Below, piece by piece: positions 9,707-32,000 of a stretch of 32,000 bases of DNA; the stretch's first letter is position 1; each line of letters starts with the position of its first letter. The notes under the pieces were generated by a model that saw nothing but the letters and a program-made list of their open reading frames with translations, made no database searches and was not told the DNA's origin. The stretch is from Desulfobulbus propionicus DSM 2032 (GTDB lineage Bacteria > Desulfobacterota > Desulfobulbia > Desulfobulbales > Desulfobulbaceae). The stretch is taken from contig NC_014972.1 of the NCBI RefSeq assembly GCF_000186885.1, positions 1,620,001-1,652,000 of the forward strand, written 5' to 3'. A program made the translations under genes and the position numbers.

Positions 9707-9716
9707 GTAAAATCAA

Positions 9717-9755: not shown

Positions 9756-9918
9756 ATACCCACCCCTGTGTTTTCAATGGCTCCAGCCGATTCCCATGTT
9801 TAACATGCTGTTTTAACGCATCATTTTTTCAAGTTGCACTCATTTTTAATCGTTGTATATCGTTGGTTATCGTTTCCTGTGCACGGAAATTTACACTCAA
9901 ATTTACACACGAAAAACG

Positions 9919-10962: not shown

Positions 10963-11018
10963 AGAAGAACGTTTTTTTGTGGACGGACTCTTGGGTAGGC
11001 GCTTGGAAAGATAAATTA

Positions 11019-12564: not shown

Positions 12565-13539
12565 ATTTGAAAAACAATTCGATCTGCCAGCGCTCTTTGT
12601 AGATTTGGGTGATCTCCTTGGCTTTCAGGTGGTGGGCGTTGGTGACAAACCGATACTCGATGCCGGTCGCCGGGTCGGTATAAGCGACCAGACGCAACGG
12701 CTGCTCAACCCCTTTGAGCCGGATGGTCTGATCGTTGGTGATCCCAGCGCTCCTTCGCCCGGCCCGTTTAAGCAGGTATTGGACATCGGCATTGCTTTTC
12801 AGCCGCGAAACAAAGAAAACGGCGTTAGCGGTCAGGTCGCTGTGCCAGCGGTAATCGGTGAAGCCGCGATCAATGCAGACAAAGGAGCCCTTGGGGAGTT
12901 GCAGGGTCCTGGCCCAGTTGATCTCGTGTTCCTTCCCCTTGGTCATGTCCATGAAGACCGGAAGATGCCCATCGGCATCCAGGCCGACATGCAGTTTGAT
13001 GGCTCCCTTTTTCTGCCTGAATTCGGCCCAGGGAAAGGCGGCGAGGCAAAGGTTGATCACCGTGGCATCAAGCAGGTACAGCTTGCCTTTGAAGGAGAAG
13101 CGGTGTTTGGGCGCTACCAGTTGGCACCTGTCCAGCAGCTTGGCGAACAGTGCTTGAGAGCAGCGGGTTGCTCTGCGTTGACCCGAGCCAAGGTTGCTTT
13201 AGTGGTTCGCTTCATACCAAGATGATAGAGCCGCTTGCCCTGTGCCATGAGATTATCGGTGATATCCCGGAGGCTTTTTCTGCCGGAAAGCTGGCCGATC
13301 AGCATGGCTAGGAATTGACTCCAGCGGTTGTAGGAACGGAAATTCTGTCCCGCGTGATGCAGTTGAGCCAGTGTGTCAAATTCATATCTTGGGACAAGTG
13401 TAAGCAATTGCTTGAGGACGGTATCGCTATAGGCCATGGCTCGGATCTCCTTGGTTTGTATGATCTTTATGCAAAATCATTATACCGCCAAGCAGCTCTC
13501 CGAGCCTCCTTATCTTCATTTTTTATGAGACAGCAGTGA
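12565..13539 (-). mobile_element. 5' two-thirds of a second IS4-family element (called IS-B), inverted relative to its 3' part
   Basis: The minus-strand ORFs 13114-13437 (MAYSDTVLKQLLTLVPRYEFD..., DUF4372-like N-terminus) and 12521-13060 (...FVCIDRGFTDY...YKERWQIELFFK) form one transposase with an internal frameshift near 13150-13162. The coding sequence breaks exactly after ELFFK at 12565, where IS-A abuts. The terminal repeat TCACTGCTGTCTCATAAA is the reverse complement of 13522-13539. Confidence 0.8.
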
Positions 13540-13549
13540 TTCATAATAA

Positions 13550-16697: not shown

Positions 16698-16890
16698 CAT
16701 CCAGGTGGAGAACAAAGTCTGTGTCATTTTTTCTCAGTTGGGGGGGTAATGATTTCAATGCCTACACGGCAAAACGCTGTTTTTTCGAATATAAAATGAA
16801 AAAACTCTCTTGACTTCATATTTGTAATCGAAGAGACTTGTCAAGGTCGCCTGCTTACAACACTTACCTCAACCGAATTTGCTTCCTCCC

Positions 16891-17931
16891 ATGTCTAATC
16901 GTCACCATATTTTTTCGTTTACCGTCGCGTTGATCGTCCTGGTCAACATATCACCTGCCATCGGCGCAACCACGGAACCACAAACCAAACAGTTTGTCCA
17001 GCTCCTGCCCAAACCAGGCAAACAGGACACGAAAAATGCCCCGCTCCAACTCAACATCAAGAATGGTAAGAACGGCGTTCTCCTCGCCATTACCTTCGCC
17101 GGAGAAAAAATCACCCTTGAGAAAGGCGCGCAACCTGCTCCTCCTGGGGGTATGTACACTGTCTCGCTCGACGGCTCCATGGTACTGCAGGAAACCTTTA
17201 GCGAACCAACCCTGCACATCGAAAAACCATTGCCCATGCAAACTCTGGGGAACGGTGATCATGTTGTGCGCTGCGAGGTACACTACTCCATCGGCAAGAC
17301 CTATGAGGCAGAACTCCCCTTCAGTTTCGATGCAACGCCGATCATCACCCTGGAAAAACCTGGTTCTAAATCACCTGTACCCGATCCTTTGGTGGGCTTC
17401 CAATTTTACAACGAAAAGCAAGAGGTCGTCGGCTTTCTCGATGTCGCTGTGGATGAAAGATCGCTTGGGGTAACGCAAATCACCTCTCAGGCCAATGGTG
17501 AGAAGAAACCGCTGTCGCAATGGACGGGCAAGCCGATCTCCATCGCGGAACTCCCTCCAGGACAGCATCTGATCAGATTAACAGCCACGGGAACCAATGG
17601 CGGCGAAAGCGTCCAATTTGTTCCTTTCGAGGTGGAAGCCTTGCCGATGCTCAATGTGGACAAAAACAAGGAAGGAGCCATGGAAAGCATCAAAGCCACT
17701 TTTCTTCAGGCCAGCAGTGCCTACTCCGGCTCGGTGGAGATTTTCTACCAACATGGCGTCATCCTGTCTCTTCAAAGCAAAGAACCATCTGTGCTCATCA
17801 AAAAAAGCGACATAGTGCAGGCGTTTGCACAGCACAAACTGTCACTTCCTACCAAACCGGTCCCCCTGGTTGTGGGGCTTCGCTCCGCCAACAATACGGA
17901 GAACTGGCAGACAATCCTGTTTTTGCCGTAA
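16891..17931 (+). CDS. Secreted hypothetical protein with Ig-like beta-sandwich features (first gene of the rhs module)
   Basis: Signal peptide MSNRHHIFSFTVALIVLVNISPAIG/ATTEP. Recurring motif L-x-x-G-x-H-(V/L)-(V/I)-R (LGNGDHVVRCEV, LPPGQHLIRLTATGTNGGES), similar to the next gene. The start is ambiguous (TTG 16879 or ATG 16891) and no clear SD is present. Confidence 0.6.
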   Translation: MSNRHHIFSFTVALIVLVNISPAIGATTEPQTKQFVQLLPKPGKQDTKNAPLQLNIKNGKNGVLLAITFAGEKITLEKGAQPAPPGGMYTVSLDGSMVLQETFSEPTLHIEKPLPMQTLGNGDHVVRCEVHYSIGKTYEAELPFSFDATPIITLEKPGSKSPVPDPLVGFQFYNEKQEVVGFLDVAVDERSLGVTQITSQANGEKKPLSQWTGKPISIAELPPGQHLIRLTATGTNGGESVQFVPFEVEALPMLNVDKNKEGAMESIKATFLQASSAYSGSVEIFYQHGVILSLQSKEPSVLIKKSDIVQAFAQHKLSLPTKPVPLVVGLRSANNTENWQTILFLP

Positions 17932-17968
17932 CTCTTTCTCACCTTTCTTTTCAAGCAAGGAAAACCGA

Positions 17969-19681
17969 ATGTGCTGCTTTGCTCTGATCAGACGGCTGAG
18001 TGTCTGGATTCTGACCGTTCTTAGTATTTTTGCATTTATACCGGCATTAGCCGCCGCCACTAGTGCCTCTATTTCTATCAGCGGGCAGGAGGGTGCGCTC
18101 CCCCTGCAAGCATCAGGTGAATTCAGCGAATACACTTTTTGTGACGGAGCTCACCCGCCCAACTGCTGGACAGATAATTCAGGATCATTGACGGTTCGCC
18201 AAACATTCCCGAGCGGCGGTACCTATTCCATAGGAAGCAAATCCGGCAAAGGTTCGGCTGACTGGTCCACCACCTTAGATACCGGTGCCATGGCCCAGGG
18301 GACACACACATTTGTCGCAACAGCTTGCGACGTAAAAGGAAATTGCAGTTCTAACTCCCAAAGTATCACAATCGACAACACGCCGGCAGTAACGAGCACT
18401 GTAAGCAAAACGGAAGGTGAGCTTGATATCAAGGGAACCGTAGATTTCAAAGAATATGTCGGCGGCAATGAAGGATCCGTTACCCTTTATCACATATACC
18501 CTAACAACTCATATGCATATCGGATCCAGAGCAAATCCTTTGAAGGAACAAACGTCATAAACTGGACCTATCAGGAGATTGTTGGAGCCATTGCCGATGG
18601 GGGATCATGGGCACAAGGAAAGCACATCATTCGAGCCGTCGCCACAGCACACAATGGCGCCTCAACTTCTATTGATATCCCCATCACCATCGATAACACC
18701 CCGGAGGTTACGGGTTCAGCCAATAAAGTTGAAGGTGATCTCAATATTAAGGGGACAGTCGATTTCAAGGAATACGTCAGCGGCAATGAAGGATCCGTTA
18801 CCCTTTATCACATATACCCTAACAACTCATATGCATATCGGATCCAGAGCAAATCTTTTGAAGGAACAAACGTCATAAACTGGACCTATCAGGAGATTGT
18901 TGGAGCCATTGCCGATGGGGGATCATGGGCACAAGGAAAGCACATCATTCGAGCCGTCGCCACAGCACACAATGGCGCCTCAACTTCTATTGATATCCCC
19001 ATCACCATCGATAACACCCCGGAGGTTACGGGTTCAGCCAATAAAGCTGAAGGCGATCTCGACATTAAGGGAACAGTCGATTTCAAGGAATACGTCAGCG
19101 GCAATGAAGGATCCGTCACCCTCTATCACATATACCCTAACAACTCATATGCATATCGGATCCAGAGCAAATCCTTTGAAGGAACAAACGTCATAAACTG
19201 GACCTATCAGGAGATTGTTGGAGCCATTGCCGATGGGGGATCATGGGCACAAGGAAAGCACATCATTCGAGCCGTCGCCACAGCACACAATGGCGCCTCA
19301 ACTTCTATTGATATCCTCATCACCATCGACAACACGCCGGAGGTAAAAATCATCGGTCCTCGATGTTATGCCGACCTCACCTGTGACATTCTGGGCACGG
19401 TGCAATTCAAGGAATATGTCGGTGGAGCCGAGGGGAGCGTCACGCTGTATCTGAAGGATGTCAGCGCCTCCAGCTACAGCAGTTACGGCAGCAAGAGCTA
19501 TGAGGGAACGAGCATCAACTGGAAATATGCCGACTTCGCCGGAGCCCGGATAAGCAAGGCGACCTGGGGTGGCAGAGAACTGATGGTGCAGGTGGTGGCC
19601 AAGGCCGCCAACGGCGCCACGATGACCAGCTGGCAATACTTGATGATTCCGGCGCTTGGCTGCCCAATCCCGTTACGGTAA
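17969..19681 (+). CDS. Secreted protein of five tandem ~106-aa Ig-like domains
   Basis: ATG at 17969 gives MCCFALIRRLSVWILTVLSIFAFIPALAAATSAS (signal peptide), in frame with ORF 17825-19681. Five repeats each end in a G-x-H-x-x-x-x-V-A-x-A-x-N-G...I-T-I-D-N-T-P motif. It starts 37 bp after the previous gene and ends 22 bp before the rhs ATG. Confidence 0.75.
   Translation: MCCFALIRRLSVWILTVLSIFAFIPALAAATSASISISGQEGALPLQASGEFSEYTFCDGAHPPNCWTDNSGSLTVRQTFPSGGTYSIGSKSGKGSADWSTTLDTGAMAQGTHTFVATACDVKGNCSSNSQSITIDNTPAVTSTVSKTEGELDIKGTVDFKEYVGGNEGSVTLYHIYPNNSYAYRIQSKSFEGTNVINWTYQEIVGAIADGGSWAQGKHIIRAVATAHNGASTSIDIPITIDNTPEVTGSANKVEGDLNIKGTVDFKEYVSGNEGSVTLYHIYPNNSYAYRIQSKSFEGTNVINWTYQEIVGAIADGGSWAQGKHIIRAVATAHNGASTSIDIPITIDNTPEVTGSANKAEGDLDIKGTVDFKEYVSGNEGSVTLYHIYPNNSYAYRIQSKSFEGTNVINWTYQEIVGAIADGGSWAQGKHIIRAVATAHNGASTSIDILITIDNTPEVKIIGPRCYADLTCDILGTVQFKEYVGGAEGSVTLYLKDVSASSYSSYGSKSYEGTSINWKYADFAGARISKATWGGRELMVQVVAKAANGATMTSWQYLMIPALGCPIPLR
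18371..19324 (+). repeat. Three near-identical in-frame tandem repeats of 318 bp
   Basis: The ATCGA(C/T)AAC (IDN) landmark recurs at 18371, 18689, 19007 and 19325, exactly 318 bp apart. Shadow ORFs at 18579 and 18897 (+) give almost identical 99-aa translations. Diverged units flank the block at about 18053-18370 and 19325-19650. Confidence 0.95.
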
Positions 19682-19703: not shown

Positions 19704-22700
19704 ATGAAACGCTTCTTTCGCCCCATACAGTGTTTGCTCCTCTGCCTCGGGATCCTCCTTGCCGCGATCCCCTCCCTTGCCGGCAGCAACCCGTTTATTT
19801 CCAATCACGGTATCAACTTCTCCACTGGCAACAAGTTTATCCGTGAACGCGACGTCAGCCTGGCCGGGCCGGTGGAGCCGCTCAACTTCTCCCGTTACTA
19901 CAACAGCCAGAGCAAGGAGGACACGAGCTTTGGCTACGGCTGGTCATTCTCCGAGCTTGAGTCCCTGCAGATCGAGACCGGTCTTGAACTGATCGTCTAC
20001 ATCCGTACCGACGGCCACCTGCTGCACTTCACCGCCAACGGCACGACCGACCAGTGGGCCAATGAAGTCGGCCCCCGGGCACTGATCACCAAGACCGAGG
20101 AAGGCTACCTGCTGCGCCTGCCCGATGGACGCGCCCGGCAGTTCAACTTCGCGGGACAACTCCTTTTCCGGAAAGACGCCAACGGCAACCAGATCAACTA
20201 CACCCATGAAGGAAAGAATCTCAAGAGCATTACCGATAACTTCGGCCGGACTCTGAGTCTGGGGTACAACGAGGCGGGCAAGGTTGCCACGCTCACCGCT
20301 CCAATCGGTGTGTTCACCTACGCCTATGACTCCAACGGCAATCTGGTTTCCGTCACCCGCCCCGACGGCAAGCAGCGCACCTATCTCTACGAAAACGCCA
20401 CCAATCCGCATTGCCTGACCGGCATTGTCGACGAAACCGGCATTCGTGTGCTCACCGCTACCTACGACACCATGGGCCGGGTCGTTACCTCGGCCTTCGC
20501 CAACAACCGTGAGAAGGTGACCATTGCCTATCAGGCGGGTTTCAAGCGGGTGATCACCGACAGCCTGGGAGCCGTCACCACCTACCAGCTCGAATCCTGG
20601 AATGGCGTGGCCCAAGTCAAGTCGTTCACCGGTCCCGGTTGTTCCTCCTGCGGGTCCGACAGCGCCAGCCAATACACCTACGACCTGCGCCAACAGGTGC
20701 TTTCGCAAACCGACGCACGGGGCGTTACCAGCACCTACGCCTATGACGAACAGGGCAACCGGATCCGCGAGACCCGCGCCATCGGGACCGCCCAGGAATA
20801 TACGACCACCACCACCTACACGCCCAATTTTGACAAACCGGCGACCATCACCGAACCATCGACAGGCAACCCCGGGCAGTACAAGGTGACGTCCTTCTCC
20901 TATGACGCGGCGGGCAACCCGCTTACCCGCACGGAAACGGGATACAACGCCAGTGGAGCGATCAGCCGAACAACCACCACCGTCTATGACAGCCTGGGTC
21001 GCATCGTCTCCATCGACGGACCAAGAACCGATGTCAACGACATCATCACCTTGAGCTATTATGACAACACCCCGGGCCAGAGACTCAACCGGGGCTTTCT
21101 CCGCAGCGTCACCAATGCCGCTGGTCACCAGGTGGTATTCAGCGACTACAACAACCAGGGACTGCCCGGACAAATCACCGATGCCAACGGGCAAACAACC
21201 CTGCTTGCCTACAATGCGCAAGGCCGCCTCATCGAACGGCAGAGCAGCGGCCGTGTCACCCAATACCGCTACAACGACGCCGGCGCCTTGACGTCCGTGA
21301 TTCTTCCCGGCAACCGCACCCTCTCCTACAGCTATAACGCTGCCGGTCAAGTGGCTCAGGTCACCGACCAAATCGGCAACACCATTAGTTATGACTATGA
21401 CAGTGAAGGCCGCGTGCTGCGCCGGGAAGTTCGCGACCCGGAGGGCAACCTGACCACCGCGCTCTCCGCCGAATATGACCAGGCCGGCCGGATCCTCAAG
21501 CTGACCCATCCCGACGGCAGCAACGAGCAACGCAGCTATGACCAGACGGGCAATCTGACGGAACTGACCAACGGCCTGGGACAAACATCCGCCTACAGTT
21601 ATGACGTCCTGAACCACATGAGCGCGGCGGATGAACCAGCCGGCAATGTCAGCTTCCGTTACGATCTCCACGGCAACCTGAGCGCTGTCACCGACGCAAA
21701 AGGCAGAACAACCCGGTACACGTATGATGATTTCGGCAACCGGGTTGCCGAGGTCTCACCGGATACCGGCACGGTCACCATGCGCTATGACGCCGCCGGC
21801 AACCTGATCGAGAAAACCGACGCCAACACTATCACCGTCTCCTACGTCTATGATGCGCTCAACCGGTTAACCGGGATCTTCTATCCGGATAACGCGCTGA
21901 ACGTGGCGTACACCTACGATGCCGGAAGCAACGGCAAGGGCCGGTTGACCGCTGTGCGCGACAACAGCAGCAGTTATGGCTTCAAATACAACGCCTTTGG
22001 CGAATTGAGCGCCGAGACCGCCGCCATCACCGACCACACCTTCACCACCAACTACAGCTACAATGACAACGGCGAGCTGGTGGCCGTTACTTATCCCAGC
22101 GGCCGGATCGTCACCTCCGAGCGCGACGCCGCCGGCAACGTCACCGCGATCCGCAGTGTCTACCAGGGGCAAACCAGTATCGTCGCCGAGAGCATCGCCC
22201 GTCTGCCCTTCGGCCCTCCCACGGCCATGACCCTGGGAAACGGCCTGTCCGTGGCTTCAACCTACGATCAACTCTACCGCCTGACGTCCATACAAGCCGG
22301 CGGACTCATGCACCGGAGCTACAGCTATAACGCGATCAGCCAGGTAACCGCCATCGCCGACCAGCTGGCCAGCGCCAAATCCCAAACCTTTGCCTACGAC
22401 GAGGCCAGCCGCCTGCTCTCCGCTCAAGGCGTCTACGGAGCAATCAACTATACCTATGATGAGGCCGGCAACCGATTGACCAGCGTCCAGGACGGGGCCA
22501 CCTCAACCTATACCTATGCCCAATCCAGCAATCGATTGCAGCGTATCCAGGGTGCCGAGTCCATTGACTACAGCTACGACGCGGCCGGCAACCCGCTCAG
22601 CAAGGGCAACCAGGCCTACACCTGGAACCAGGAGAACCGGCTGGCACGGGTCACTCTCAACAACGCGGTGGCCGGCCAATACAGCTACGACTTCCGGGGG

Positions 22701-25700
22701 TTGCGAAAAACAGCCGTCACCACAGCCGGCACGACCCTGTTTCTGCACGATCCGAGCGGTAACCTGCTGGCCGAGGCCGATATCCAGGGGACCATCCTGC
22801 GGGAATATGTCTACCTCGATGGCCAGCGGTTGAGTGCGTTTGACTATACCGCCCTGCCCGCGTTCGCCGTCACCGTGACCACTTCGTCCGGGGTTGTTGT
22901 CGAGGGGGTTCAGGCCTATGCCTTTGACGAGCAGAACCAATACACCAATCTCCATGTCGCCACTGACGCCGAGGGCAAGGCGACGTTCAATCGCGATGAC
23001 TTTGGCGAGGGCGCATACCGGTTCCGGGTCGATTACCTGGGGCATCAGTTGTGGACCGAACCGGTGACGGTCAAGACCAGCCAGGGTGTCAGCCTGGTGA
23101 TCAGCGAGACGCCAGTCGCCGTGCAGGTACCGACAAGCGATGCCACCCAGGCCGGCGCCACGGTTTACGTGTTCAGCGAATCGGGTGAATACCTGGGAAT
23201 TTCCGGGACCATTGACGAAACGGGCAAGGTCTCGTTCACCCTGCCCGTGGGAGGCAAATACACGTTCCGCACGGAACTCTTCGGCCAGCTGTACAGCAGC
23301 GCCCTGACCACGGCGGCTGCCGGGGCCTCGGTCACGGTCGATTCCGGTGGCGGGGTTCTCACCGTACAACTCGCCGATGACGCCAGTGCGATCCTTTCGG
23401 GGATCAAGACCACGCTCCACAGTTCAGGGGGGGCCTACCTGGGCCTCACCCGGACCAGCGATACCACCGGTAAGGTCAGCTATACCATGCCTTCCGGGAG
23501 CTATCTGCTCAAGGCCGAGTTCCTGGGCTATCCGTTCTGGAGCACCACGCTGAGTGTCACCTCCGACACGGCCGCCACCCTCACCATTCCCCGCCGTGAC
23601 CTCACCGCGCGCGTAACCCTGCAATACGAGGGTGCGGCCACGCCACTGAGCTCGGTGCCCTGCACCCTCTTCACCCCTGAAGGGGTGGAATTGGGCCAGC
23701 AGCGGAGCACCAATACCCAGGGCGAGGCCATATTTTCCGTGCCGCAAAAGCCTTACCGGATCAAGGCCACCTATCTGGCCCAGGAATATTGGTCGGCCGA
23801 CGTGACCTGGGAAAACGCTCCCATCGTCATCGCCGGCGGCAAGGCGGTGGTCAATACGACCAACAACGGCATGCCGCTGGCAGGGGCCACCCTGCGGGTG
23901 TATACCGCCACGGGGACCGATACCGGCATAACAGCTCTGACCGACAGCGAGGGAAAAACCACGTTCACCCTGCCCGGAGGTTCGTACCGTTTCCAGGCGA
24001 CCCATGAAGGCCAACTGTTCTGGAGCGGGAATCTGACCGTCACGCCCGACCAGACCATCCACACCACTATCTCCACCGGTGGCGGTTCCTATGTGCTGAA
24101 CGTGACCAACGGAACAGCGGGGATCGCCGGGGTCAAGACCATGCTGTTCTCGGCCTCCGGCTCCTACCTCAGTCAGTCGGTCACCACCTCCAGCACCGGC
24201 GAGGCGGCGTACAACCTGGCCGATGGCAGTTACCGGGTCACAGCCAATTACCTGGGGTATGAGTACAGCACCGATCCGTTCACCGTGCCCCTGATCGCCT
24301 CCCAGACCCTGGCCATTCCCCACCTGGCCCACACGGTCTCGGTGGTCCGGAGTTACCAGAACGATCGCGTCCCCCTGGCCAACATCGAGGCCACCCTGTG
24401 CTCCGTGGACGGATCCCCGCTGGCGCTCACCGTCGCCACCGGCACCGACGGCACCCTGCAATGGAGTCTGCCGGCACAGGCCTATGCGGTTCAGGCGCGC
24501 TATCTGGGGCGAACCTATCTCAGCTCGACCTTCACCAACGATGACCCTACCGTACTCATCCCCGAAGGCCTGGCCAGGGTGACGCTCCTTCAAGGCGGGA
24601 CAGCCCTGGCGAACACCCAGGTCCTTGCTATCAGCGAGAGTGATCCCGATCATCCCAAAAGCCTGATCACCAACGACAGTGGCGTGGCTGAATTCCGGCT
24701 GCCGGCCGGTTCCTACACCTTCAAGGCGACTCTGGGCGAAACCGTATACCAGGGTATCGGCACAGTCGTTGCTGATCAGATCACCAACGTCACACTCAAT
24801 CTGGGGACAAGTACCCTGTCGATCACCGTGCGCACGAACGAAACCACCGTCCTGCCTGGCGTTGTCTGCTCTCTCTATACAGCCGAAGGCGAACCGCTCA
24901 ACCGCAGCGCCACCACCGATGGTTCCGGCGTGGCCTCCTTTGCGGTGGAGGCCGGGACCTATCGAGTCAAGGCCTGGCATCTGGGCTATGACTTCACCAG
25001 CGAGGTGATCGAAACACCGGTGGTTCTCTCTGCCAGCCTGACCATCCCCCATCGCGATCTAGCCGTCCACGTGCTCAAGGATCAGGGGGACGGCGTGGAA
25101 CCGGTCTCCGGGCTGCGCTGTTATCTCTACTCCCTGGGCGAAGGCGAGGGGCTGAACGCCACCGAACTCCATGCCGACAGCGACGATCAGGGCATGGTTC
25201 ATTTTGTGGTGCCCGAGGAGCGGGCCTATTACGCCGTGGCCACCTTGCTCGGCCGCGAGTTCATCAGCGTGGAAAGCGAGGGCCAGGCCACCCTGACCAT
25301 CGAGCTGGGCACGATGACGGTTACCGTGCGCGACGACAGTGCGGTCACCGAGACCAATCCCGATGGTTTGGTACAGGGAGCAGTGGTGACGCTCTACACC
25401 AATGAAGGGACAGCCCTGGGCCAGGAACTGAGCACCGGGGCCGACGGCCAGGTCTGCTTCACCCTGCCCGAGGGCAGCTACAGACTGCGCGTCGGCTATA
25501 ACGATCAGCAGTTCTGGAGCGGGGTGATCAATACCTATCCCCTGGGCGACACGCCGGTGGAAATGATCAATGGCTCCGGCGGAATACTGAGCCGGCTGCA
25601 CGATCCCCATCCCTCCCTCTGGCACGGAACACCGCCGCAATACCGGCCACTATTGGCCCTGGCCTCAGGCTCGCTGGCCGGGATGCTGACCACCACGTCA

Positions 25701-26483
25701 ACACCCGTTGCCGCCACACCCCAGGTGGTCTATTATCTCAACGATCACCTGGGCACAGCGCAACTGCTCGTCGACGCCGCAGGGACCGTGATCTGGCAGG
25801 GTGACACCCAGCCCTTTGGCCAGGTGACTGAGGTGATTAACCAGATCGACCACCGGTTCCGCTTCCCCGGCCAGATGGTTGATCCTGAGAGCGGGTTGTA
25901 TTACAACTGGAACAGGTTCTATGATACTTCCACCGGGCGATACCTATCTCCTGATCCGATTGGGTTGGATGGGGGGATGAATTTTTATGCTTATGTCGGA
26001 GGGGATCCGGTCAACTGGGTGGATCCGTGGGGATTGGCAAAATGCACTTATTCAATATCAAAACACACGTTGATTTGTGTTTCAAATACTACAGATGATA
26101 TAAATTTTATAGGTCCTCACGAGCAAAGGCAAGTTGGGCCTGAAGGTGTTTTTTCTGGTCAAGGTGAATGCCAAGATGTTCCTTCTGACGAATGCACTGA
26201 TGACAAATACAATGGTCCAATTGTACCAGGTAACTATAATATAAATGAAGACAATAGACCTGGTCATAATGATTGGTTCAGGTTAGAGCCATCACCAAAA
26301 ATTCCCGGTTGGAAGGTCCTGTCAGGATTAGAACGAGGTGGTTTCGCATTTCACCTTGGAAGCAGGTCGGCTGGTTGCATAAATGCGAATAAAAATAATC
26401 AAGAAACGGTACAACAGTTTAGAAATTTACAGAATTTGATAAAACGAGAAAGTGGTTCCAACACTTTAAAGGTTGGGCCATGA
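19704..26483 (+). CDS. RHS/YD-repeat polymorphic toxin: signal peptide, YD-repeat region, 11-domain beta-sandwich array, RHS core (DPWGL), DUF2778/Tlde1-like C-terminal toxin
   Basis: ATG at 19704 gives MKRFFRPIQCLLLCLGILLAAIPSLAG/SNPF. There are many YD repeats (YxYDxxGNL, e.g. YAYDSNGNLVSV, YSYDAAGNPLTR, YRYDLHGNLSAV). The RHS-associated core reads VVYYLNDHLGTAQLLVDAAGTVIWQGDTQPFGQV...RFPGQMVDPESGLYYNWNRFYDTSTGRYLSPDPIGLDGGMNFYAYVGGDPVNWVDPWGL, with DPWGL at 26022-26036. No PAAR-like N-terminus recognised. Confidence 0.93.
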   Translation: MKRFFRPIQCLLLCLGILLAAIPSLAGSNPFISNHGINFSTGNKFIRERDVSLAGPVEPLNFSRYYNSQSKEDTSFGYGWSFSELESLQIETGLELIVYIRTDGHLLHFTANGTTDQWANEVGPRALITKTEEGYLLRLPDGRARQFNFAGQLLFRKDANGNQINYTHEGKNLKSITDNFGRTLSLGYNEAGKVATLTAPIGVFTYAYDSNGNLVSVTRPDGKQRTYLYENATNPHCLTGIVDETGIRVLTATYDTMGRVVTSAFANNREKVTIAYQAGFKRVITDSLGAVTTYQLESWNGVAQVKSFTGPGCSSCGSDSASQYTYDLRQQVLSQTDARGVTSTYAYDEQGNRIRETRAIGTAQEYTTTTTYTPNFDKPATITEPSTGNPGQYKVTSFSYDAAGNPLTRTETGYNASGAISRTTTTVYDSLGRIVSIDGPRTDVNDIITLSYYDNTPGQRLNRGFLRSVTNAAGHQVVFSDYNNQGLPGQITDANGQTTLLAYNAQGRLIERQSSGRVTQYRYNDAGALTSVILPGNRTLSYSYNAAGQVAQVTDQIGNTISYDYDSEGRVLRREVRDPEGNLTTALSAEYDQAGRILKLTHPDGSNEQRSYDQTGNLTELTNGLGQTSAYSYDVLNHMSAADEPAGNVSFRYDLHGNLSAVTDAKGRTTRYTYDDFGNRVAEVSPDTGTVTMRYDAAGNLIEKTDANTITVSYVYDALNRLTGIFYPDNALNVAYTYDAGSNGKGRLTAVRDNSSSYGFKYNAFGELSAETAAITDHTFTTNYSYNDNGELVAVTYPSGRIVTSERDAAGNVTAIRSVYQGQTSIVAESIARLPFGPPTAMTLGNGLSVASTYDQLYRLTSIQAGGLMHRSYSYNAISQVTAIADQLASAKSQTFAYDEASRLLSAQGVYGAINYTYDEAGNRLTSVQDGATSTYTYAQSSNRLQRIQGAESIDYSYDAAGNPLSKGNQAYTWNQENRLARVTLNNAVAGQYSYDFRGLRKTAVTTAGTTLFLHDPSGNLLAEADIQGTILREYVYLDGQRLSAFDYTALPAFAVTVTTSSGVVVEGVQAYAFDEQNQYTNLHVATDAEGKATFNRDDFGEGAYRFRVDYLGHQLWTEPVTVKTSQGVSLVISETPVAVQVPTSDATQAGATVYVFSESGEYLGISGTIDETGKVSFTLPVGGKYTFRTELFGQLYSSALTTAAAGASVTVDSGGGVLTVQLADDASAILSGIKTTLHSSGGAYLGLTRTSDTTGKVSYTMPSGSYLLKAEFLGYPFWSTTLSVTSDTAATLTIPRRDLTARVTLQYEGAATPLSSVPCTLFTPEGVELGQQRSTNTQGEAIFSVPQKPYRIKATYLAQEYWSADVTWENAPIVIAGGKAVVNTTNNGMPLAGATLRVYTATGTDTGITALTDSEGKTTFTLPGGSYRFQATHEGQLFWSGNLTVTPDQTIHTTISTGGGSYVLNVTNGTAGIAGVKTMLFSASGSYLSQSVTTSSTGEAAYNLADGSYRVTANYLGYEYSTDPFTVPLIASQTLAIPHLAHTVSVVRSYQNDRVPLANIEATLCSVDGSPLALTVATGTDGTLQWSLPAQAYAVQARYLGRTYLSSTFTNDDPTVLIPEGLARVTLLQGGTALANTQVLAISESDPDHPKSLITNDSGVAEFRLPAGSYTFKATLGETVYQGIGTVVADQITNVTLNLGTSTLSITVRTNETTVLPGVVCSLYTAEGEPLNRSATTDGSGVASFAVEAGTYRVKAWHLGYDFTSEVIETPVVLSASLTIPHRDLAVHVLKDQGDGVEPVSGLRCYLYSLGEGEGLNATELHADSDDQGMVHFVVPEERAYYAVATLLGREFISVESEGQATLTIELGTMTVTVRDDSAVTETNPDGLVQGAVVTLYTNEGTALGQELSTGADGQVCFTLPEGSYRLRVGYNDQQFWSGVINTYPLGDTPVEMINGSGGILSRLHDPHPSLWHGTPPQYRPLLALASGSLAGMLTTTSTPVAATPQVVYYLNDHLGTAQLLVDAAGTVIWQGDTQPFGQVTEVINQIDHRFRFPGQMVDPESGLYYNWNRFYDTSTGRYLSPDPIGLDGGMNFYAYVGGDPVNWVDPWGLAKCTYSISKHTLICVSNTTDDINFIGPHEQRQVGPEGVFSGQGECQDVPSDECTDDKYNGPIVPGNYNINEDNRPGHNDWFRLEPSPKIPGWKVLSGLERGGFAFHLGSRSAGCINANKNNQETVQQFRNLQNLIKRESGSNTLKVGP
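22860..25585 (+). repeat. Array of 11 tandem ~80-90-aa beta-sandwich (CarboxypepD_reg / prealbumin-like) domains inside the rhs gene
   Basis: Each unit follows the pattern (hydrophobic strand)-G-(V/A)-x-(V/L)-x-L(Y/F)-x-x-x-G-x-x-x-x-x-x-x-T-(D/N)-x-x-G-x-x-x-F-x-(L/V)-P-x-G-x-Y-x-(F/V)-x-A-x-x-x-G. Examples: TDSEGKTTFTLPGGSYRFQATHEG, TNDSGVAEFRLPAGSYTFKATLGE, TDGSGVASFAVEAGTYRVKAWHLG. Confidence 0.8.
26037..26483 (+). other. C-terminal toxin domain CT1: DUF2778 / Tlde1-like L,D-transpeptidase-fold
   Basis: 148 aa after DPWGL, in visibly AT-rich DNA. Motifs: VFSGQGECQDVPSDECTDDKYNGPIVPGNYNI (compare the SG-x-G...N-x-P...GPIPPG-x-Y pattern of DUF2778) and ERGGFAFHLGSRSAGCINA (a His...S-x-G-C-I-(N/R) YkuD-like catalytic motif). 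Confidence 0.55.
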
Positions 26484-26935
26484 AAGTCGTCAAGCGAATA
26501 ATCATAATGTTATCTTTAAGCTTAGTTGTATTAATGCTAAGTTTTTTATTAAAAAATTATGTGTTTGATAAAGCAATCTTACACTTAAAGGAAGAAAATC
26601 ATGAATATGCTCTTTATTATTTGAAGCCATTGGCATTTGTTGGGTATTCTGAAGCGCAAAAAATTCTTGGTGAATGTTTTGCTTTTGGCCATGGTGTTGA
26701 AAAAAACAAGGAAAAAGCTAAATACTGGTTAAGACGTGCTCATGATGGCAGTGACTGTAACAGCGATCGATGTATCGCTGCCGATTTATATTTTATCGGT
26801 GAAAATTATTTAGAAGGAGTTGGTGTTGAGATTAATCGTGAAGAAGCTATGAATTGGATTAAAATGGCGGCAGATAACGGCTACCCCAAGGCTGTTGAAT
26901 ATATGTCTCAACCCCGGAGCCCTGAAGCTCGATAG
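26480..26935 (+). CDS. Sel1-like repeat protein with N-terminal membrane anchor; cognate immunity candidate for CT1
   Basis: Its ATG overlaps the rhs stop (ATGA at 26480-26483). N-terminal hydrophobic segment IIIMLSLSLVVLMLSFLL. Sel1/SLR motifs: AQKILGECFAFGHGVEKNKEKAKYWLRRA and YFIGENYLEGVGVEINREEAMNWIKMAADNGYPKA. AT-rich like CT1. Confidence 0.75.
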   Translation: MKVVKRIIIMLSLSLVVLMLSFLLKNYVFDKAILHLKEENHEYALYYLKPLAFVGYSEAQKILGECFAFGHGVEKNKEKAKYWLRRAHDGSDCNSDRCIAADLYFIGENYLEGVGVEINREEAMNWIKMAADNGYPKAVEYMSQPRSPEAR

Positions 26936-26990
26936 CTTGAAATTAGGGGAGGCACCAAGATGTTTCTCTCCCACCTGGCGCTCACCCACC

Positions 26991-28880
26991 AGCGGCAACC
27001 CGACCGTACTCATCCCCGAGGGCTTGGCCAGGGCGACACTGCTCCAGGGTGGAGCTGCCCTGGCGAACACCCAGGTGGTGGCGATCAGTGACAGCGATCC
27101 CGACCATCCCCAAAGCCTGACCAGCGATGCCAGCGGCGTGGCCGAATTGCGTTTGCCGGCCGGCTCCTACACCTTCAAGGCTACCCTGGGTGAAACCGTG
27201 TACCAGGGCATCGGCACGGTGCTCGCCGACCAGACCACCAACGTCACCCTCAATCTGGGGACAAGTACCCTGTCTATCACTGTGCGCAAGAATGAGACCA
27301 CCGTCCTGCCTGGCGTTGTCTGCTCTCTCTATACGGCCGAAGGCGAACCGCTTGACCGCAGCGCCACCACCGATGGTTCCGGCGTGGCCTCCTTTGCGGT
27401 GGAGGCTGGGACCTATCGGGTCCAAGCCCGGTATCTGGGCTATGACTTCACCAGCGAGGTGATTGAAACACCGGCGGTTCTCGCCGCCAGCCTCACCATC
27501 CCCTATCGCGACCTGGCCGTTCGCGTGCTCAAGGATCAGGGGCAAGGCACGGAACCGGTCTCCGGGCTGCGCTGTTATCTCTACTCCCTGGGGGAAGGCG
27601 AGGGGCTGAACGCCACCGGGCTCCATGCCGACAGCGACGATCAGGGCATGGTCCATTTTGTGGTGCCCGAGGAGCGGGCCTATTACGCCGTGGCCACCCT
27701 GCTCGGCCGCGAGTTCATCAGCGTGGAAAGCGAGGGCCAGGCCACCCTGACCATCGAGCTGGGCACGATGACGGTTACCGTGCGTGACGACAGTGCGGTC
27801 ACCGAGGCCAATCCCGATGGTTTGGTGCAGGGGGCGGTGGTGGAGCTCTACACCAGTGAAGGGACGGCTCTGGGCCAGGAACTGAGCACCGGGGCCGACG
27901 GCCAGGTCTGCTTCACCCTGCCCGAGGGCAGCTACAAGCTGCGCGTCGGCTATAACGATCAGCAGTTCTGGAGCGGGGTGATCAATACCTATCCCCTGGG
28001 CAACACGCCGGTGGAAATGGTCAATGGCTCCGGCGGTATACTGAGCAGGCTGCACGATCCCCATCCCTCCCTCTGGCACGGAACACCACCGGAATACCGG
28101 CCACTATTGGCCCTGACCTTGGGATCACTGGCCGGGATGCTGACCACCACGTCAACGCCCGTTGCCGCCACGCCCCAGGTGGTCTATTACCTCAACGATC
28201 ATCTGGGCACGGCGCAACTGCTCGTCGACGCCACAGGAATAGTCATCTGGCAGGGTGACGCCCAGCCCTTTGGCCAGGTGACTGAGGTGATCAACCAGAT
28301 CGATCACCGATTCCGCTTCCCCGGCCAGATGGTTGATCCTGAAAGCGGGTTGCATTACAACTGGAACAGGTTTTATGATCCTGCCACTGGGAGGTACCTA
28401 TCACCTGATCCGATTGGGCTGGATGGGGGGACGAATTTGTATGGGTATGTCGGAGGGGATCCGGTGAACTCGATTGATCCGCTTGGATTATTTAATCCCA
28501 CCAAAGGAATTGCTTCACTTGGCAATGCAGCAAACGCTGGTCGGCTGTACGCTGGAGGTGTTTTGAAACTTGGCGCAGCAGCTGGTTTGACAAGCACTGG
28601 GTTAGGGGCACCTGCTGGAACTGGAGTCGCAGCGCTTGGTACATGGAACTTGTGGTCTGCACAATCTGCCTGGAATCGCTCGTTACAACAATGGAATGAG
28701 GCTTGGAATGAAAGTTGGGACGACGCAACGTGGAAAAATCTTCTGGGTATATTGCCCTTTGGTACCGAGTTTGATGACCCTTGTGAGCCTTCGGCATGGG
28801 ATGTCCTGAAAGCTAAAGCAAAGAATTTCAAGGATAAACCTGACGAAATAATCAGAGAAATAGGAACTTGGGGATTCTAA
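26991..28880 (+). CDS. Orphan rhs C-terminal module 1 (array units 8-11 + RHS core + alternative toxin CT2); no credible own start
   Basis: From about 26998 it is colinear and highly similar to main-gene 24547-26036 (PTVLIPEGLARATLLQGG... to ...GGDPVNSIDPLGL, with DPLGL at 28476-28490). It then diverges into an AT-rich 129-aa tip: FNPTKGIASLGNAANAGRLYAGGVLKLGAAAGLTSTGLGAPAGTGVAALGTWNLW... Confidence 0.85.
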   Translation, partial: SGNPTVLIPEGLARATLLQGGAALANTQVVAISDSDPDHPQSLTSDASGVAELRLPAGSYTFKATLGETVYQGIGTVLADQTTNVTLNLGTSTLSITVRKNETTVLPGVVCSLYTAEGEPLDRSATTDGSGVASFAVEAGTYRVQARYLGYDFTSEVIETPAVLAASLTIPYRDLAVRVLKDQGQGTEPVSGLRCYLYSLGEGEGLNATGLHADSDDQGMVHFVVPEERAYYAVATLLGREFISVESEGQATLTIELGTMTVTVRDDSAVTEANPDGLVQGAVVELYTSEGTALGQELSTGADGQVCFTLPEGSYKLRVGYNDQQFWSGVINTYPLGNTPVEMVNGSGGILSRLHDPHPSLWHGTPPEYRPLLALTLGSLAGMLTTTSTPVAATPQVVYYLNDHLGTAQLLVDATGIVIWQGDAQPFGQVTEVINQIDHRFRFPGQMVDPESGLHYNWNRFYDPATGRYLSPDPIGLDGGTNLYGYVGGDPVNSIDPLGLFNPTKGIASLGNAANAGRLYAGGVLKLGAAAGLTSTGLGAPAGTGVAALGTWNLWSAQSAWNRSLQQWNEAWNESWDDATWKNLLGILPFGTEFDDPCEPSAWDVLKAKAKNFKDKPDEIIREIGTWGF

Positions 28881-29042
28881 ATGTCAACCTTTACATTTAT
28901 TACAATTGCTCTCTCTGTAGTTTTTATGATTTACTGCACAGTACTTTATGTTCGGGATCTTAAGGTCGGAAAAGACTCATTTATCAAGAAAACAGGACGG
29001 TGGCTTAAAAACGTAATCGATGTTTTTTTTGGTGCTGGATAG
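28881..29042 (+). CDS. 53-aa single-pass membrane protein; immunity candidate for CT2 (below ORF-track size cutoff)
   Basis: The ATG at 28881 directly abuts the orphan-1 stop (TAA ATG). Translation: MSTFTFITIALSVVFMIYCTVLYVRDLKVGKDSFIKKTGRWLKNVIDVFFGAG*, with TAG at 29040-29042. One clear hydrophobic helix. AT-rich like CT2. Confidence 0.55.
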   Translation: MSTFTFITIALSVVFMIYCTVLYVRDLKVGKDSFIKKTGRWLKNVIDVFFGAG

Positions 29043-29086
29043 CCCTTACATAGGGCCGCCGTTTCAGCCAGATATGTTGCATCGCC

Positions 29087-30979
29087 GCCCTGCCCAACAC
29101 CCAGGTCATGGCGATCAGCGACATCGATCCCGACCATCCCCAAAGCCTGACCACCGACGCTGGCGGCGTGGCCGAATTCCGGTTGCCGGCCGGCTCCTAC
29201 ACCTTCAAGGCCACCCTGGGTGAAACCGTGTACCAGGGCATCGGCACGGTGCTCGCCGACCAGACCACCAACGTCACCCTCAACCTGGGGGCCAGCACCC
29301 TGGCGATCACCGTGCGCACGGACGAAACCACCGTCCTGCCCGGTGTGGTCTGCTCCCTCTATACAGCCGAAGGCGAGCCGCTTAACCGCAGCGCCACCAC
29401 CGATGGTTCCGGCGTGGCCTCCTTTGCGGTGGAGGCTGGGACCTATATGGTCCAAGCCCGGTATCTGGGCTATGACTTCACTCTCGAAGCGATCGAAACA
29501 CCAACGGTTCTCGCCGCCAGCCTCACCATCCCCCATCGCGACCTGGCCGTCCGCGTGTTCAAGGATCAGGGGAACGGCGCGGAACCGGTCTCCGGGCTGC
29601 GCTGTTATCTCTACTCTCTGGGCGAAGGCGAGGGGCTGAACGCCACCGGGCTCCATGCCGACAGTGACGATCAAAGCATGGTTCATTTTGTGGTACCCGA
29701 GGAACGGGCCTATTACACCGTGGCCACCCTGCTCGGCCGCGAGTTCATCAGCGTGGAAAGCGAGGGCCAGGCCACCCTGACCATCGAGCTGGGCACCATG
29801 ACCGTCACCGTGCGCGACGATAGCCAAATCACCGAGGCCAATCCCGATGGTTTGGTACAGGGGGCAGTGGTGACGCTCTACACCAATGAAGGGACAACCC
29901 TGGGCCCGGAACTGAGCACCGGGGCCGACGGCCAGGCCTGCTTCACCCTGCCCGAGGGCAGCTACAAGCTGCGCGTCGGTTATAACGATCAGCAGTTCTG
30001 GAGCGGGGTGATCAATACCTACGCCCTGGGCAACACGCCGGTGGAAATGGTCAATGGCTCCGGCGGCCTGCTCAGCCGGCTGCACGATCCCCATCCCTCC
30101 CGCTGGCACGGGACGCCACCGCAATACCGGCCACTATTGGCCCTGGCCTCGGAGTCGCTGGCCGGGATGCTGACCACCACGTCAACCCCGGTTACCGCCA
30201 CGCCCCAGGTGGTCTATTATCTCAACGATCACTTGGGCACAGCGCAACTGCTCGTCGACGCCGCAGGGACCGTGATCTGGCAGGGCGACACCCAGCCCTT
30301 TGGCCAGGTGACCGAGGTGATCAACCAGATCGATCACCGATTCCGCTTCCCCGGCCAGATGGTTGATCCTGAGAGCGGGTTGTATTACAACTGGCACAGG
30401 TTTTATGATCCTTCCACGGGGAGGTACCTATCCGCTGACCTGATTGGGTTGAATGGGGGGATTAATCTCTTTGCTTATGTTGGTGGCGATCCGGTGAATT
30501 TGATCGATTTAGAGGGACTTGCTGGTTGCAAGGTACTGTTTCCCAACATGCCTATTGATACAGGTATGGGTTTTACATCAACAAGTCTTGGAGGTCACGG
30601 AGGAATTCTTACCTATGATACCAATGGTACAACTAAGTATTACGAGTATGGGCGTTATCCAGCGAGCCAAGCTGTTGGATCAGGCTTGCCTTCAGATGAA
30701 GGCAATGTTCGTCGACTTAGCGTACCCAACCTACAGCTAGATAAAAACGGTCAACCAACCCCTGAGTCACTGGCGGCATTGAAAGAGTTTCTTGAGAAAA
30801 AAGCTGGGAAGGATACAGATTCTGAGTTGACTTGTGACGCTAATGCTGATGAGAAAAAAATTCTTGATTATATTGATAAAATTTCCAAAGATCCGAAGCG
30901 ACCTAAATATAAATGGAATCCATGGAACAGTAATCATTGTCGCGATTTTGCTACACGGGCATATAATTCAGGGCGATAA
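29087..30979 (+). CDS. Orphan rhs C-terminal module 2 (array units 8-11 + degenerate RHS core + alternative toxin CT3)
   Basis: Similarity to the main gene begins at about 29087 (ALPNTQVMAISDIDPDHPQSL versus ALANTQVLAISESDPDHPKSL at about 24603) and runs to GGDPVNLIDLEGL (30506-30520). An AT-rich 152-aa tip follows (AGCKVLFPNMPID...GGHGGILTYD...NSNHCRDFATRAYNSGR). The in-frame ATG at 29108 has no SD. Confidence 0.85.
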   Translation, partial: ALPNTQVMAISDIDPDHPQSLTTDAGGVAEFRLPAGSYTFKATLGETVYQGIGTVLADQTTNVTLNLGASTLAITVRTDETTVLPGVVCSLYTAEGEPLNRSATTDGSGVASFAVEAGTYMVQARYLGYDFTLEAIETPTVLAASLTIPHRDLAVRVFKDQGNGAEPVSGLRCYLYSLGEGEGLNATGLHADSDDQSMVHFVVPEERAYYTVATLLGREFISVESEGQATLTIELGTMTVTVRDDSQITEANPDGLVQGAVVTLYTNEGTTLGPELSTGADGQACFTLPEGSYKLRVGYNDQQFWSGVINTYALGNTPVEMVNGSGGLLSRLHDPHPSRWHGTPPQYRPLLALASESLAGMLTTTSTPVTATPQVVYYLNDHLGTAQLLVDAAGTVIWQGDTQPFGQVTEVINQIDHRFRFPGQMVDPESGLYYNWHRFYDPSTGRYLSADLIGLNGGINLFAYVGGDPVNLIDLEGLAGCKVLFPNMPIDTGMGFTSTSLGGHGGILTYDTNGTTKYYEYGRYPASQAVGSGLPSDEGNVRRLSVPNLQLDKNGQPTPESLAALKEFLEKKAGKDTDSELTCDANADEKKILDYIDKISKDPKRPKYKWNPWNSNHCRDFATRAYNSGR

Positions 30980-30981
30980 AC

Positions 30982-31323
30982 ATGAAGAAATTGACGCTGT
31001 TTCTTTTGCTTTCTCTATCTGTTAGTATAATTTGCTGTGCTTTTTTTGCCTATTTTTGGATAGATAGGTCTATCTCTCTTGACTATCTCCAACAATCTTA
31101 TGAAACTGAGCGAAGTTCTGTAGCAAATTTACAAAAATTAATTGCTTCGGAATGGAAGGGTTTACCTGAAGGGCAAGTACAAAAAAAACTAGAGCAAGTA
31201 GCAGCTAAATCGCCAGAACGTCGCATTGTTGTAAAAAAAGAGGGTTCGATCATTTGGTTCGATCAGGTTCCTTTCAATATCGAGCAAGGAAGACTCGATA
31301 GCGTGGGGCCAAGTACTCGTTAA
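30982..31323 (+). CDS. 113-aa membrane-anchored protein; immunity candidate for CT3
   Basis: It starts 2 nt after the orphan-2 stop. N-terminal hydrophobic anchor MKKLTLFLLLSLSVSIICCAFFAYFWI, then a soluble domain. AT-rich. Confidence 0.6.
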   Translation: MKKLTLFLLLSLSVSIICCAFFAYFWIDRSISLDYLQQSYETERSSVANLQKLIASEWKGLPEGQVQKKLEQVAAKSPERRIVVKKEGSIIWFDQVPFNIEQGRLDSVGPSTR

Positions 31324-31651
31324 CCTGTTATTTAGAGGAGTTCAGGGTAAACCCGATAAGGCGGGCACAGCCCCACCGTGGCCGCCGTTACTCATCTTTC
31401 CCCCCTCGCGCGGCGACAAGCCACGGGCAATATTCTCAATCGCCATTCCCCAGGCGTGTAGGTATAGGGGGAGATCTTGAACCTTGAATCGTTCCAGAGA
31501 GTCTTCTCTGCATGACCCAACCACTCCGCATAGAACCGCCTGACGTCGCAGACCTTGCCCAAAGCAAGATAACGTCTATACGGTGTGTTGCAACGTACGC
31601 AACAAGCAGGCCGGGCTTGTCGATGCCGCACGATAAGGGGACACATTTATT

Positions 31652-32000
31652 TCCTCGGCCTCCGGCTCCTACCTCAATCAGTCGGTCACCACCTCCAGCA
31701 CCGGCGAGGCGGCGTACAACCTGGCCGATGGCAGTTACCGGGTCACGGCCAACTATCCGGGGTATGAATACAGCACCGATCCGTTCACCGTCCCCCTGGT
31801 CGCCTCCCAGGCCCTGGCTATTCCCCACCTGGCCCACACGGTCTCGGTGGTCCGGAGCTACCAGAACAACCGCGTGGCCTTGGCCAACATCGAGGCCACG
31901 CTGTGCACTGTGGACGGTACCCCCCTGGCGCTCACCGCCGCCACCGGAGCCGACGTCACCCTGCAATGGAGTCTTCCGGCACAGGCCTATGCGGTTCAGG
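31652..32000 (+). CDS. Orphan rhs module 3, 5' portion (array units 6-7 onward); continues beyond the window
   Basis: Not in the ORF track because it has no stop in the window. The frame starting at 31655 reads SASGSYLNQSVTTSSTGEAAYNLADGSYRVTANYPGYEYSTDPFTVPLVASQALAIPHLAHTVSVVRSYQNNRVALANIEATLCTVDGTPLALTAATGADVTLQWSLPAQAYAVQ. This is colinear with main-gene 24148-24500. Confidence 0.85.

Follow-up and report, generated by a model that had tools for sequence, protein, structure and literature searches.

The layout in which start-less pieces of a toxin gene stand behind a full-length copy is already textbook knowledge, and the C-terminal displacement model that goes with it is reportedly due to Jackson et al. 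2009. Here we describe such a layout, on a carrier gene of unusual architecture, in Desulfobulbus propionicus DSM 2032: an rhs gene and its downstream orphans in a window of 32,000 nucleotides (nt), positions 1,620,001 to 1,652,000 of the forward strand of contig NC_014972.1 (assembly GCF_000186885.1).

The closest described systems are the orphan rhs-CT/rhsI modules of Enterobacteria (Koskiniemi et al. 2014, PMC3967940; Poole et al. 2011, PMC3150448). As in the window, start-less fragments after a full-length rhs gene share its sequence as far as a DPxGL motif and then run into an unrelated C-terminal toxin tip (CT) and an immunity gene, and homologous recombination can act on the region they share. 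For the main rhs gene and orphan of Salmonella Typhimurium LT2 (STM0291/STM0292), 522 bp at 95% identity were enough for a switch between the two (PMC3967940).

We consider it highly probable that the Desulfobulbus locus is a polymorphic-toxin locus formed by C-terminal displacement, in which the gene of a full-length Rhs protein, tipped by Tlde1 and paired with a Sel1 immunity protein, is followed by two orphan cassettes that are intact and by a decayed remnant of a third arm. The first-pass annotation, made from the letters of the window alone, had proposed an orphan rhs-CT/immunity layout, and this proposal holds: the start-less fragments are colinear with the main gene, toxin and immunity domains are present, the ratio of non-synonymous to synonymous divergence (dN/dS) of the arms is about 0.2, and one orphan tip and its immunity gene recur on a full-length gene in another genome. 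Orphans 1 and 2 have every structural feature of the Rhs main-plus-orphan class that was examined; orphan 3 lacks a tip after DPxGL.

The rhs gene, its orphan arms and their tips

The features that carry the argument are the following, in window coordinates.

19704-26483, plus strand: full-length rhs gene, 2259 amino acids (aa) from ATG 19704, by open reading frame (ORF) scan and Pfam/NCBIfam; the mechanical ORF opens at TTG 19656
22878-25580, plus strand: 11 beta-sandwich units of about 82 aa each, between YD shell and RHS core (segmentation, Pfam)
24533-26036, plus strand: homology arm of the main gene, comprising the end of unit 7, units 8-11, the linker and the RHS core to DPWGL (blastn, alignment)
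26037-26483, plus strand: main tip CT1, a Tlde1 domain (L,D-transpeptidase-like, acts on the cell wall), guanine-plus-cytosine (GC) fraction 0.39 (PF10908, 51.5 bits, cut-off 30.1)
26480-26935, plus strand: putative immunity gene 1, 151 aa, N-terminal hydrophobic segment and Sel1 repeats; its ATG overlaps the rhs stop (ATGA)
26987-28490, plus strand: orphan 1 arm, 90.7% identical to main 24533-26036, gap-free, in frame, ending in DPLGL at 28476-28490
28491-28880, plus strand: orphan 1 tip CT2, 129 aa, a Gly/Ala-rich hydrophobic stretch and then a Trp-rich part, no family match
28881-29042, plus strand: putative immunity gene 2 (imm2), 53 aa, one hydrophobic helix
29084-30520, plus strand: orphan 2 arm, 90.1% identical to the main arm and 90.7% to orphan 1, gap-free, in frame
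30521-30979, plus strand: orphan 2 tip CT3, TseH-like cysteine hydrolase (NlpC/P60-type cell-wall hydrolase; PF25218, 42.9 bits, cut-off 27)
30982-31323, plus strand: immunity gene 3, Imm58 family, 113 aa, N-terminal hydrophobic segment (PF15581, E 5e-57)
31324-31653, no strand: spacer between the Imm58 gene and orphan 3, 330 bp, GC 0.55
31654-32000, plus strand: fragment of the orphan 3 arm, cut off by the window end, 92.2% identical to main 24149-24495

The full-length protein consists, in order, of a Sec-type signal peptide (MKRFF...SLAGS), DUF6531, YD/RHS repeats (RHS_repeat in Pfam, E 1.5e-83), the 11 beta-sandwich units, the RHS core and the Tlde1 tip. The RHS motif PF03527 is followed at residues 2036-2111 by the RHS-associated core TIGR03696 (Rhs_assc_core), and the match to this core ends at DPxGL in the main gene, orphan 1 and orphan 2 alike. 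Pfam found no PAAR domain in the main Rhs protein, and the features that mark a type VI secretion system (T6SS) effector, that is a PAAR or other loading domain, or vgrG, an EagR-type chaperone or linkage to T6SS genes, are absent from the window, which has no VgrG or T6SS gene. Pfam/NCBIfam scans of the main gene and the fragments likewise found no CdiA filamentous haemagglutinin repeats, VENN motif or CdiB partner. The combination of a Sec signal with 11 beta-sandwich domains that lie between shell and core, in an Rhs protein that has no T6SS marker nearby, is unusual.

A blastn comparison of the downstream region with the window returned arm matches at E = 0 to 1e-144, far beyond chance. 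Positions 26987-28489 match main 24533-26035 (90.7% over 1503 bp), 29087-30498 match main 24603-26014 (90.1%), 29084-30508 match orphan 1 27054-28478 (90.7%) and 31654-32000 match main 24149-24495 (92.2% over 347 bp), all without a gap. The first-pass annotation had the three fragments re-enter the main gene at about 24547, 24603 and 24148, each within 15 nt of the point measured by blastn, and had called for pairwise alignments, which show the fragments to be colinear with the main gene, gap-free and 90-92% identical. Its placement of the breakpoints at the unit 7/8 boundary, in unit 8 and in unit 6 is matched by the 11-unit segmentation, which puts orphan 1 at the unit 7/8 border, orphan 2 10 aa into unit 8 and orphan 3 19 aa into unit 6.

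Both ends of the homology are abrupt. In in-register alignments the 5' breakpoints of the orphan arms are sharp, with random-level identity upstream, and homology is lost exactly after the DPxGL codons, at 26022-26036 in the main gene (DPWGL, its demarcation motif), 28476-28490 in orphan 1 and 30506-30520 in orphan 2. GC is 0.61-0.63 in the arms and 0.35-0.48 in the tips and small ORFs (tips 0.39-0.48). An unrelated AT-rich tip and a small gene do follow DPxGL in both complete fragments, as the annotation had it: homology ends there and GC falls. Beta-sandwich units 8-11 account for about 70% of the arm and the linker and core for about 30%, because the 11 units are inserted between YD shell and core, upstream of DPxGL. 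The main gene and orphan 1 carry DPIGL followed by DPWGL or DPLGL respectively, and in orphan 2 both motifs have changed proline to leucine (DLIGL 30437-30451 and DLEGL 30506-30520).

The arms differ mostly at third codon positions. Pairwise dN/dS is 0.18-0.23 at a synonymous divergence (dS) of 0.26-0.29, and 1.4-1.5 kb contain no stop codon or indel. Most of the divergence therefore accrued in translated genes, under purifying selection.

Such signatures would also be expected if the fragments were small toxin genes in their own right, expressed from TTG 26895 and ATG 29108 as proteins of 620-660 aa. Their ORFs are open and gene callers give products of 661 and 623 aa. However, Pfam finds no YD repeats, signal peptide or DUF6531 in either complete fragment, which bears out the claim that neither has an upstream YD region of its own; the fragment starts fall within domains, and the first 32 codons of the orphan 1 ORF are non-homologous junction sequence overlapping the end of the immunity gene. 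Neither start has a Shine-Dalgarno sequence, although this does not discriminate, as none was found at any candidate start, bona fide main and immunity genes included. We regard independent genes as very unlikely.

The GC-rich arms also carry long antisense ORFs on the minus strand, at 26982-28079, 28946-30124 and 31436-31966 (365, 392 and 176 aa). The one on orphan 3 is annotated by gene callers as a 240-aa gene in two metagenome contigs (L008, L010). All three look like artefacts of composition and not genes. At the junction of immunity gene 1 and the orphan 1 arm (26940-26962), the strong Shine-Dalgarno-like sequence AGGGGAGG lies 8 nt 5' of ATG 26960, which opens a 43-codon ORF out of frame with orphan 1; the site could be a coincidence or a leftover start signal.

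CT3 matches PDB 6v98, deposited as a cysteine hydrolase (E 9e-5). A small ORF lies directly 3' of each tip (the Sel1 protein, the 53-aa membrane ORF and Imm58), and all three small proteins begin with a hydrophobic segment. Given the Tlde1 and TseH cell-wall families and these hydrophobic N-termini, the cassettes look like envelope-targeting toxin/immunity pairs, as far as can be predicted from sequence. CT2 may be a membrane toxin, because its Gly/Ala-rich hydrophobic stretch is paired with a membrane-helix partner. Pfam searches up to E 0.1 and a PDB sequence search with CT2 and the 53-aa ORF gave only sub-threshold matches; Exo70_C, DUF3923 and Crov539 were among these and were set aside as chance or compositional.

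Origin of the arms and exchange between them

The window arms are 89.5-91.3% identical to one another and 86-92.5% identical to arms from publicly available sequences of other strains and species. The orphan 1 arm is closest, at 92.5%, to an orphan arm on another contig, L030. As the arms are as different from each other as from those of other strains, arrival from diverged alleles is favoured over recent duplication in place.

One genome, L029 (GCA_053528815.1), has a colinear full-length rhs ortholog, 77% identical in amino acids over 2111 residues and preceded by a homolog of the 618-aa ORF that lies upstream of rhs in the window (17825-19681). The tip of this ortholog shares 79% identity with CT2, and the 53-aa ORF after it shares 77% with imm2. 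No full-length carrier of CT3 was found. The tips of other relatives include DUF4329 and unknown families, and their arm fragments start at main residues 1480, 1585, 1698, 1731/1769 and 1764; fragments with other breakpoints occur in L030, L002, L031 and L033, and other tips in L030 and L002. This variety of tips and breakpoints is the pattern that C-terminal displacement would be expected to leave.

In Desulfobulbus rhabdoformis DSM 8777 (L002), arm fragments lie at 9870-11413 and 12567-12863, one of them with a DUF4329 tip and a 128-aa ORF. No full-length rhs of the same family is present within 10 kb upstream; these fragments are orphans without a neighbouring main gene.

A tandem duplication of the resident 3' end in place, with the tips replaced afterwards, would also give colinear arms in tandem, and because exchange between the arms appears to be ongoing (see below) they could be older, partly homogenised duplicates. 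However, the 5' breakpoints differ from arm to arm, the window arms resemble one another no more than they resemble those of other strains, with orphan 1 nearest to the L030 orphan arm, and CT2 with imm2 sits on a full-length gene elsewhere. In-place duplication is in our view unlikely.

To see how the locus varies in nature, 18 metagenome contigs were compared with the window base by base. They differ from it at 199 positions in 20,011 bp of arm and at 2 in 22,204 bp outside the arms. At 182 of the 199 arm mismatches (91%) the contig has the base of another window arm at the homologous position, where chance would give 5%. A patch of 10 sites in orphan 1 (28233-28343), changed to main-like bases, recurs in L008, L009, L020 and L021, from four samples in ENA and JGI. 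The main arm of L024 is orphan 1-like at 18 of 18 sites between 25548 and 25856, and the orphan 1 arm of L022 is main-like across 27453-27937.

Two contigs, L006 and L007, equal the window but for two features. The first is a patch in the main arm (25074-25911) with 47 differences, every one the orphan 2 base, interleaved with nine sites that keep the main base at spacings down to 9-13 bp; stitching k-mers of window-type copies cannot yield this pattern. The second is a single clean switch from orphan 1 to orphan 2, between the last orphan 1 site at 28283 and the first orphan 2 site at 30373, in a 59-bp identical run, which removes CT2, imm2 and most of the orphan 2 arm. CT2 and imm2, whose presence in samples 3300002219 and 3300000568 would have pointed to an assembly jump, were not found there, a weak negative because the 53-aa gene is often uncalled, as in L008, which has it.

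Short-read assemblies can mix paralogs, and L006 and L007 are perhaps not independent. Even so, artefacts would hardly produce patches that recur and whose diagnostic sites are so closely interleaved, and gene conversion between the arms is the best reading of them, as judged from the assembled sequences. The window itself tells a similar story. Which of its three arms is the odd one out changes in blocks, and the proportion of synonymous differences (pS) varies from 0.08 to 0.42 between segments, which indicates a mosaic history for the arms.

Contig L023 diverges fully from the window over its last 47 nt (2076-2122, window 27568 onward), within the orphan 1 arm, a sign of either a structural variant or a chimera at the end of the contig.

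Might the arms themselves be a mis-assembly of one gene from a mixed population? Repeats that are 90% identical are a classic source of such error. However, contigs L008, L009 and L020, which are independent and come from different samples, repeat the order immunity gene 1, orphan 1, imm2, orphan 2, Imm58, orphan 3; the flanks differ for every arm, and the window's protein is on a 3.85-Mb contig. An assembly artefact is thus hardly credible.

The displacement reading would work as follows. Each orphan would derive from an rhs allele, former or foreign, of which it keeps the 3' end: arm, DPxGL, tip and immunity gene. A new module of arm, tip and immunity gene would recombine onto the main gene, and the old tip would be displaced downstream. 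Because the consensus scan found no convincing terminators, the orphan immunity genes are probably transcribed by read-through, and they may protect against neighbours with those toxins. The arms would permit an occasional toxin switch of the main gene or the loss of a cassette, by analogy with Salmonella (PMC3967940), and since they are gap-free a crossover anywhere in them would give an in-frame chimera of 11 units. The array would decay from its distal end, at orphan 3.

Several observations weigh against this reading. The first-pass annotation took the arms as a recombination substrate for toxin switching; exchange between them is supported by the arm patches and by the crossover deletion between orphans 1 and 2, but in none of the contigs L006-L035 is main-specific sequence joined to CT2 or CT3, and no toxin switch was seen. 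The arms are only about 90% identical, with identical runs of at most 85 bp and 15-17 runs of at least 25 bp, and exchange should therefore be infrequent. The junction of the L006/L007 deletion lies in its 59-bp identical run, both contigs may stem from related cultures or assemblies, and an assembly jump is possible. The full-length gene of L029 has one in-frame stop (4644-4646, a Trp codon changed to stop, in unit 4) and is annotated as two genes; it is either a real pseudogene or a consensus error of a metagenome-assembled genome. The proline-to-leucine changes in both DPxGL motifs of orphan 2 might impair autoproteolytic release of the TseH tip after a switch. No expression signal was found by a Shine-Dalgarno search or by a consensus scan of 25900-32000, where promoter and terminator counts were no higher than in shuffles. 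Finally, the decay of orphan 3 shows that not all orphans are maintained.

It is possible, though we think it less than probable, that the cassettes are kept for immunity only, as an islet with dead remnants in which the arms decay and the patches are incidental gene conversion. Orphan 3 is full of deletions and cut by an insertion sequence (IS), both DPxGL prolines of orphan 2 are mutated, no switch recombinant occurs in about 30 contigs, and arrays of orphan immunity genes alone are known at T6SS loci (PMC5361080). Lineage-unique synonymous to non-synonymous changes number 12:3 in the main arm, 6:6 in orphan 1 and 11:15 in orphan 2, although the contrast is weak, as the counts are small and the main gene of L033, at 13:13, resembles the orphans. 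In contrast, the frames of orphans 1 and 2 are open over 629 and 630 codons with no indel at a dS of about 0.27. Such an islet is also compatible with displacement and does not exclude it.

Orphan 3, the beta-sandwich array and the island

At least three displaced toxin tips had been claimed for the locus; the window holds two. Contigs that extend orphan 3 were found through the Imm58 protein, and four of them (L006, L007, L008 and L010) match the window at 99.5-100% over the orphan 3 stretch. In these contigs it tracks the main gene to 24688 and then skips 246 nt in frame, exactly one unit, so that unit 8 is joined to unit 9 at corresponding positions across about 10 nt of microhomology (GGCGTGGC). 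Next come main 24912-24984, a frameshifting jump of about 400 nt that ends in unit 11, a stretch to 25612 and a jump to 25839-25864, a third deletion of about 227 nt, before the IS element. The IS is entered in L007, L008 and L010, and the L006 contig stops short of it. It corresponds to window 13552-12185 in reverse and encodes DUF4372 and DDE_Tnp_1. In none of the four contigs is a DPxGL or a tip reached before the IS, and a search for sequence beyond it through its DUF4372 protein gave only contigs shorter than 2 kb. Orphan 3 is a decayed, IS-truncated arm remnant.

Within the spacer before it, positions 31360-31429 are 77% similar to 1373-1443 of contig L001, downstream of a different tip/immunity pair, and a minus-strand ORF of 84 aa (31392-31646) has no family match. 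The spacer may be the remnant of an older junction or of a mobile element.

The one-unit deletion of orphan 3 bears on a further claim, that the array is internally repetitive, so that out-of-register exchange could change the number of its units. The array comprises CarboxypepD_reg/SpaA-like domains over about 900 aa; the last YD-shell strand (...EYVYLDGQRLSAFDY) precedes it, and the 'YYLNDHLGT' RHS motif and the core follow. At the DNA level it is not repetitive in the sense required. Its 11 units are pairwise 17-36% identical in amino acids and 33-53% in nucleotides, and a k-mer scan of the array and orphans found no exact out-of-register match longer than 15 nt. Blastn of the array and orphans at 1e-5 gives in-register matches only, and Tandem Repeats Finder (TRF) reports no tandem repeat in the array, although it does detect the 318-nt repeat of the upstream gene.

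Four orthologs, 77-83% identical in amino acids, all have 2111-2114 aa between start codon and DPxGL, so unit number is conserved, fixed at 11; L029, L031/L032 and L033 are the orthologs that keep this length. The sole one-unit deletion seen, that of the decayed orphan 3, arose at about 10 nt of microhomology and not by homologous recombination. Out-of-register exchange that changes unit number is unsupported on all these counts. The array is repetitive as a fold and not as a recombination substrate.

A switch would nevertheless transfer the distal four to five units together with the toxin. If these units form a stalk that binds a target cell or secretion partner, specificity and toxin would be swapped together, as in CdiA, where receptor-binding and CT modules swap together; unit-scale deletions like that of orphan 3 could then tune stalk length. 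We think such a role improbable, for the ratio of non-synonymous to synonymous differences (pN/pS) is below 1 in every array unit and the number of units is fixed in the four orthologs.

The surroundings of the locus are those of a genomic island. The 19 kb 5' of rhs contain thrS-infC-pheS-pheT, a tRNA-Pro, an integrase, IS fragments and three ORFs without a family match.

9630-15081, no strand: left edge of the island (context), with tRNA-Pro, integrase and nested IS fragments
9630-9706: tRNA-Pro(GGG)
9853-10962: tyrosine integrase

With a tRNA-Pro, a tyrosine integrase and nested IS fragments upstream, the rhs locus lies in an island adjoining tRNA-Pro. Rfam finds the two tRNAs in the whole window and nothing else. 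On the left side of the island at least two IS types (DUF4372 with DDE_Tnp_1, and DDE_5) are represented by fragments, nested and inverted, whose transposase frames are broken. One fragment, 12185-13552, is the same element that cuts orphan 3 in L008, 99.7% identical and in inverted orientation, which places inverted IS copies on both sides of the entire rhs locus.

Just 5' of rhs, the 618-aa ORF (17825-19681) contains the repeat found by TRF, 2.9 copies of 318 nt (106 aa) at 96% identity (18413-19344), and has a weak match to the Ig-like family Big_13. Because this ORF and the 350-aa ORF at 16879-17931 are kept beside the rhs orthologs of L029 and L031-L033, they may be accessory or partner proteins of Rhs.

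Comparison with described systems

Measured against Salmonella LT2, the arm described here is longer and more diverged, 1.4-1.5 kb at about 90% identity as opposed to 522 bp at 95% (PMC3967940), and about 70% of it encodes four beta-sandwich domains, which canonical Rhs proteins lack. Unlike Enterobacterial Rhs, the carrier has a Sec signal peptide and, in the window, no PAAR or VgrG. What is seen is also different: patchy gene conversion and a cassette deletion rather than a selected toxin switch. In the public-metagenome record nearly all strain-level variation at this Rhs locus appears to have been copied between main and orphan arms, and one cassette to have been lost by crossover. This provides in-situ support for a recombination model otherwise shown mainly in laboratory Salmonella. 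All its tips appear to target the envelope, and the Rhs of this sulfate-reducing Desulfobulbus may be a reasonable system for work on the delivery of non-T6SS Rhs toxins.

Orphan cdiA-CT/cdiI arrays (PMC3150448) share with the locus the tandem displaced tip/immunity cassettes that retain a piece of the conserved upstream region. However, there is no CdiA or two-partner secretion architecture and no VENN motif here, and the demarcation is the DPxGL of the Rhs core. In the T6SS effector/immunity displacement of Vibrio cholerae (Kirchberger et al. 2017, PMC5361080), older modules are likewise pushed downstream and form orphan immunity arrays; in the Desulfobulbus locus, by contrast, two displaced tips are intact beside their immunity genes, on long coding arms. 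The type VII secretion system immunity genes of Firmicutes (PMC9484751) provide a further parallel, with tandem paralogues at a toxin locus that exchange or are deleted by homologous recombination, to give strain-level variation. The repeats there are the immunity genes, whereas in Desulfobulbus they are the arms of the toxin carrier.

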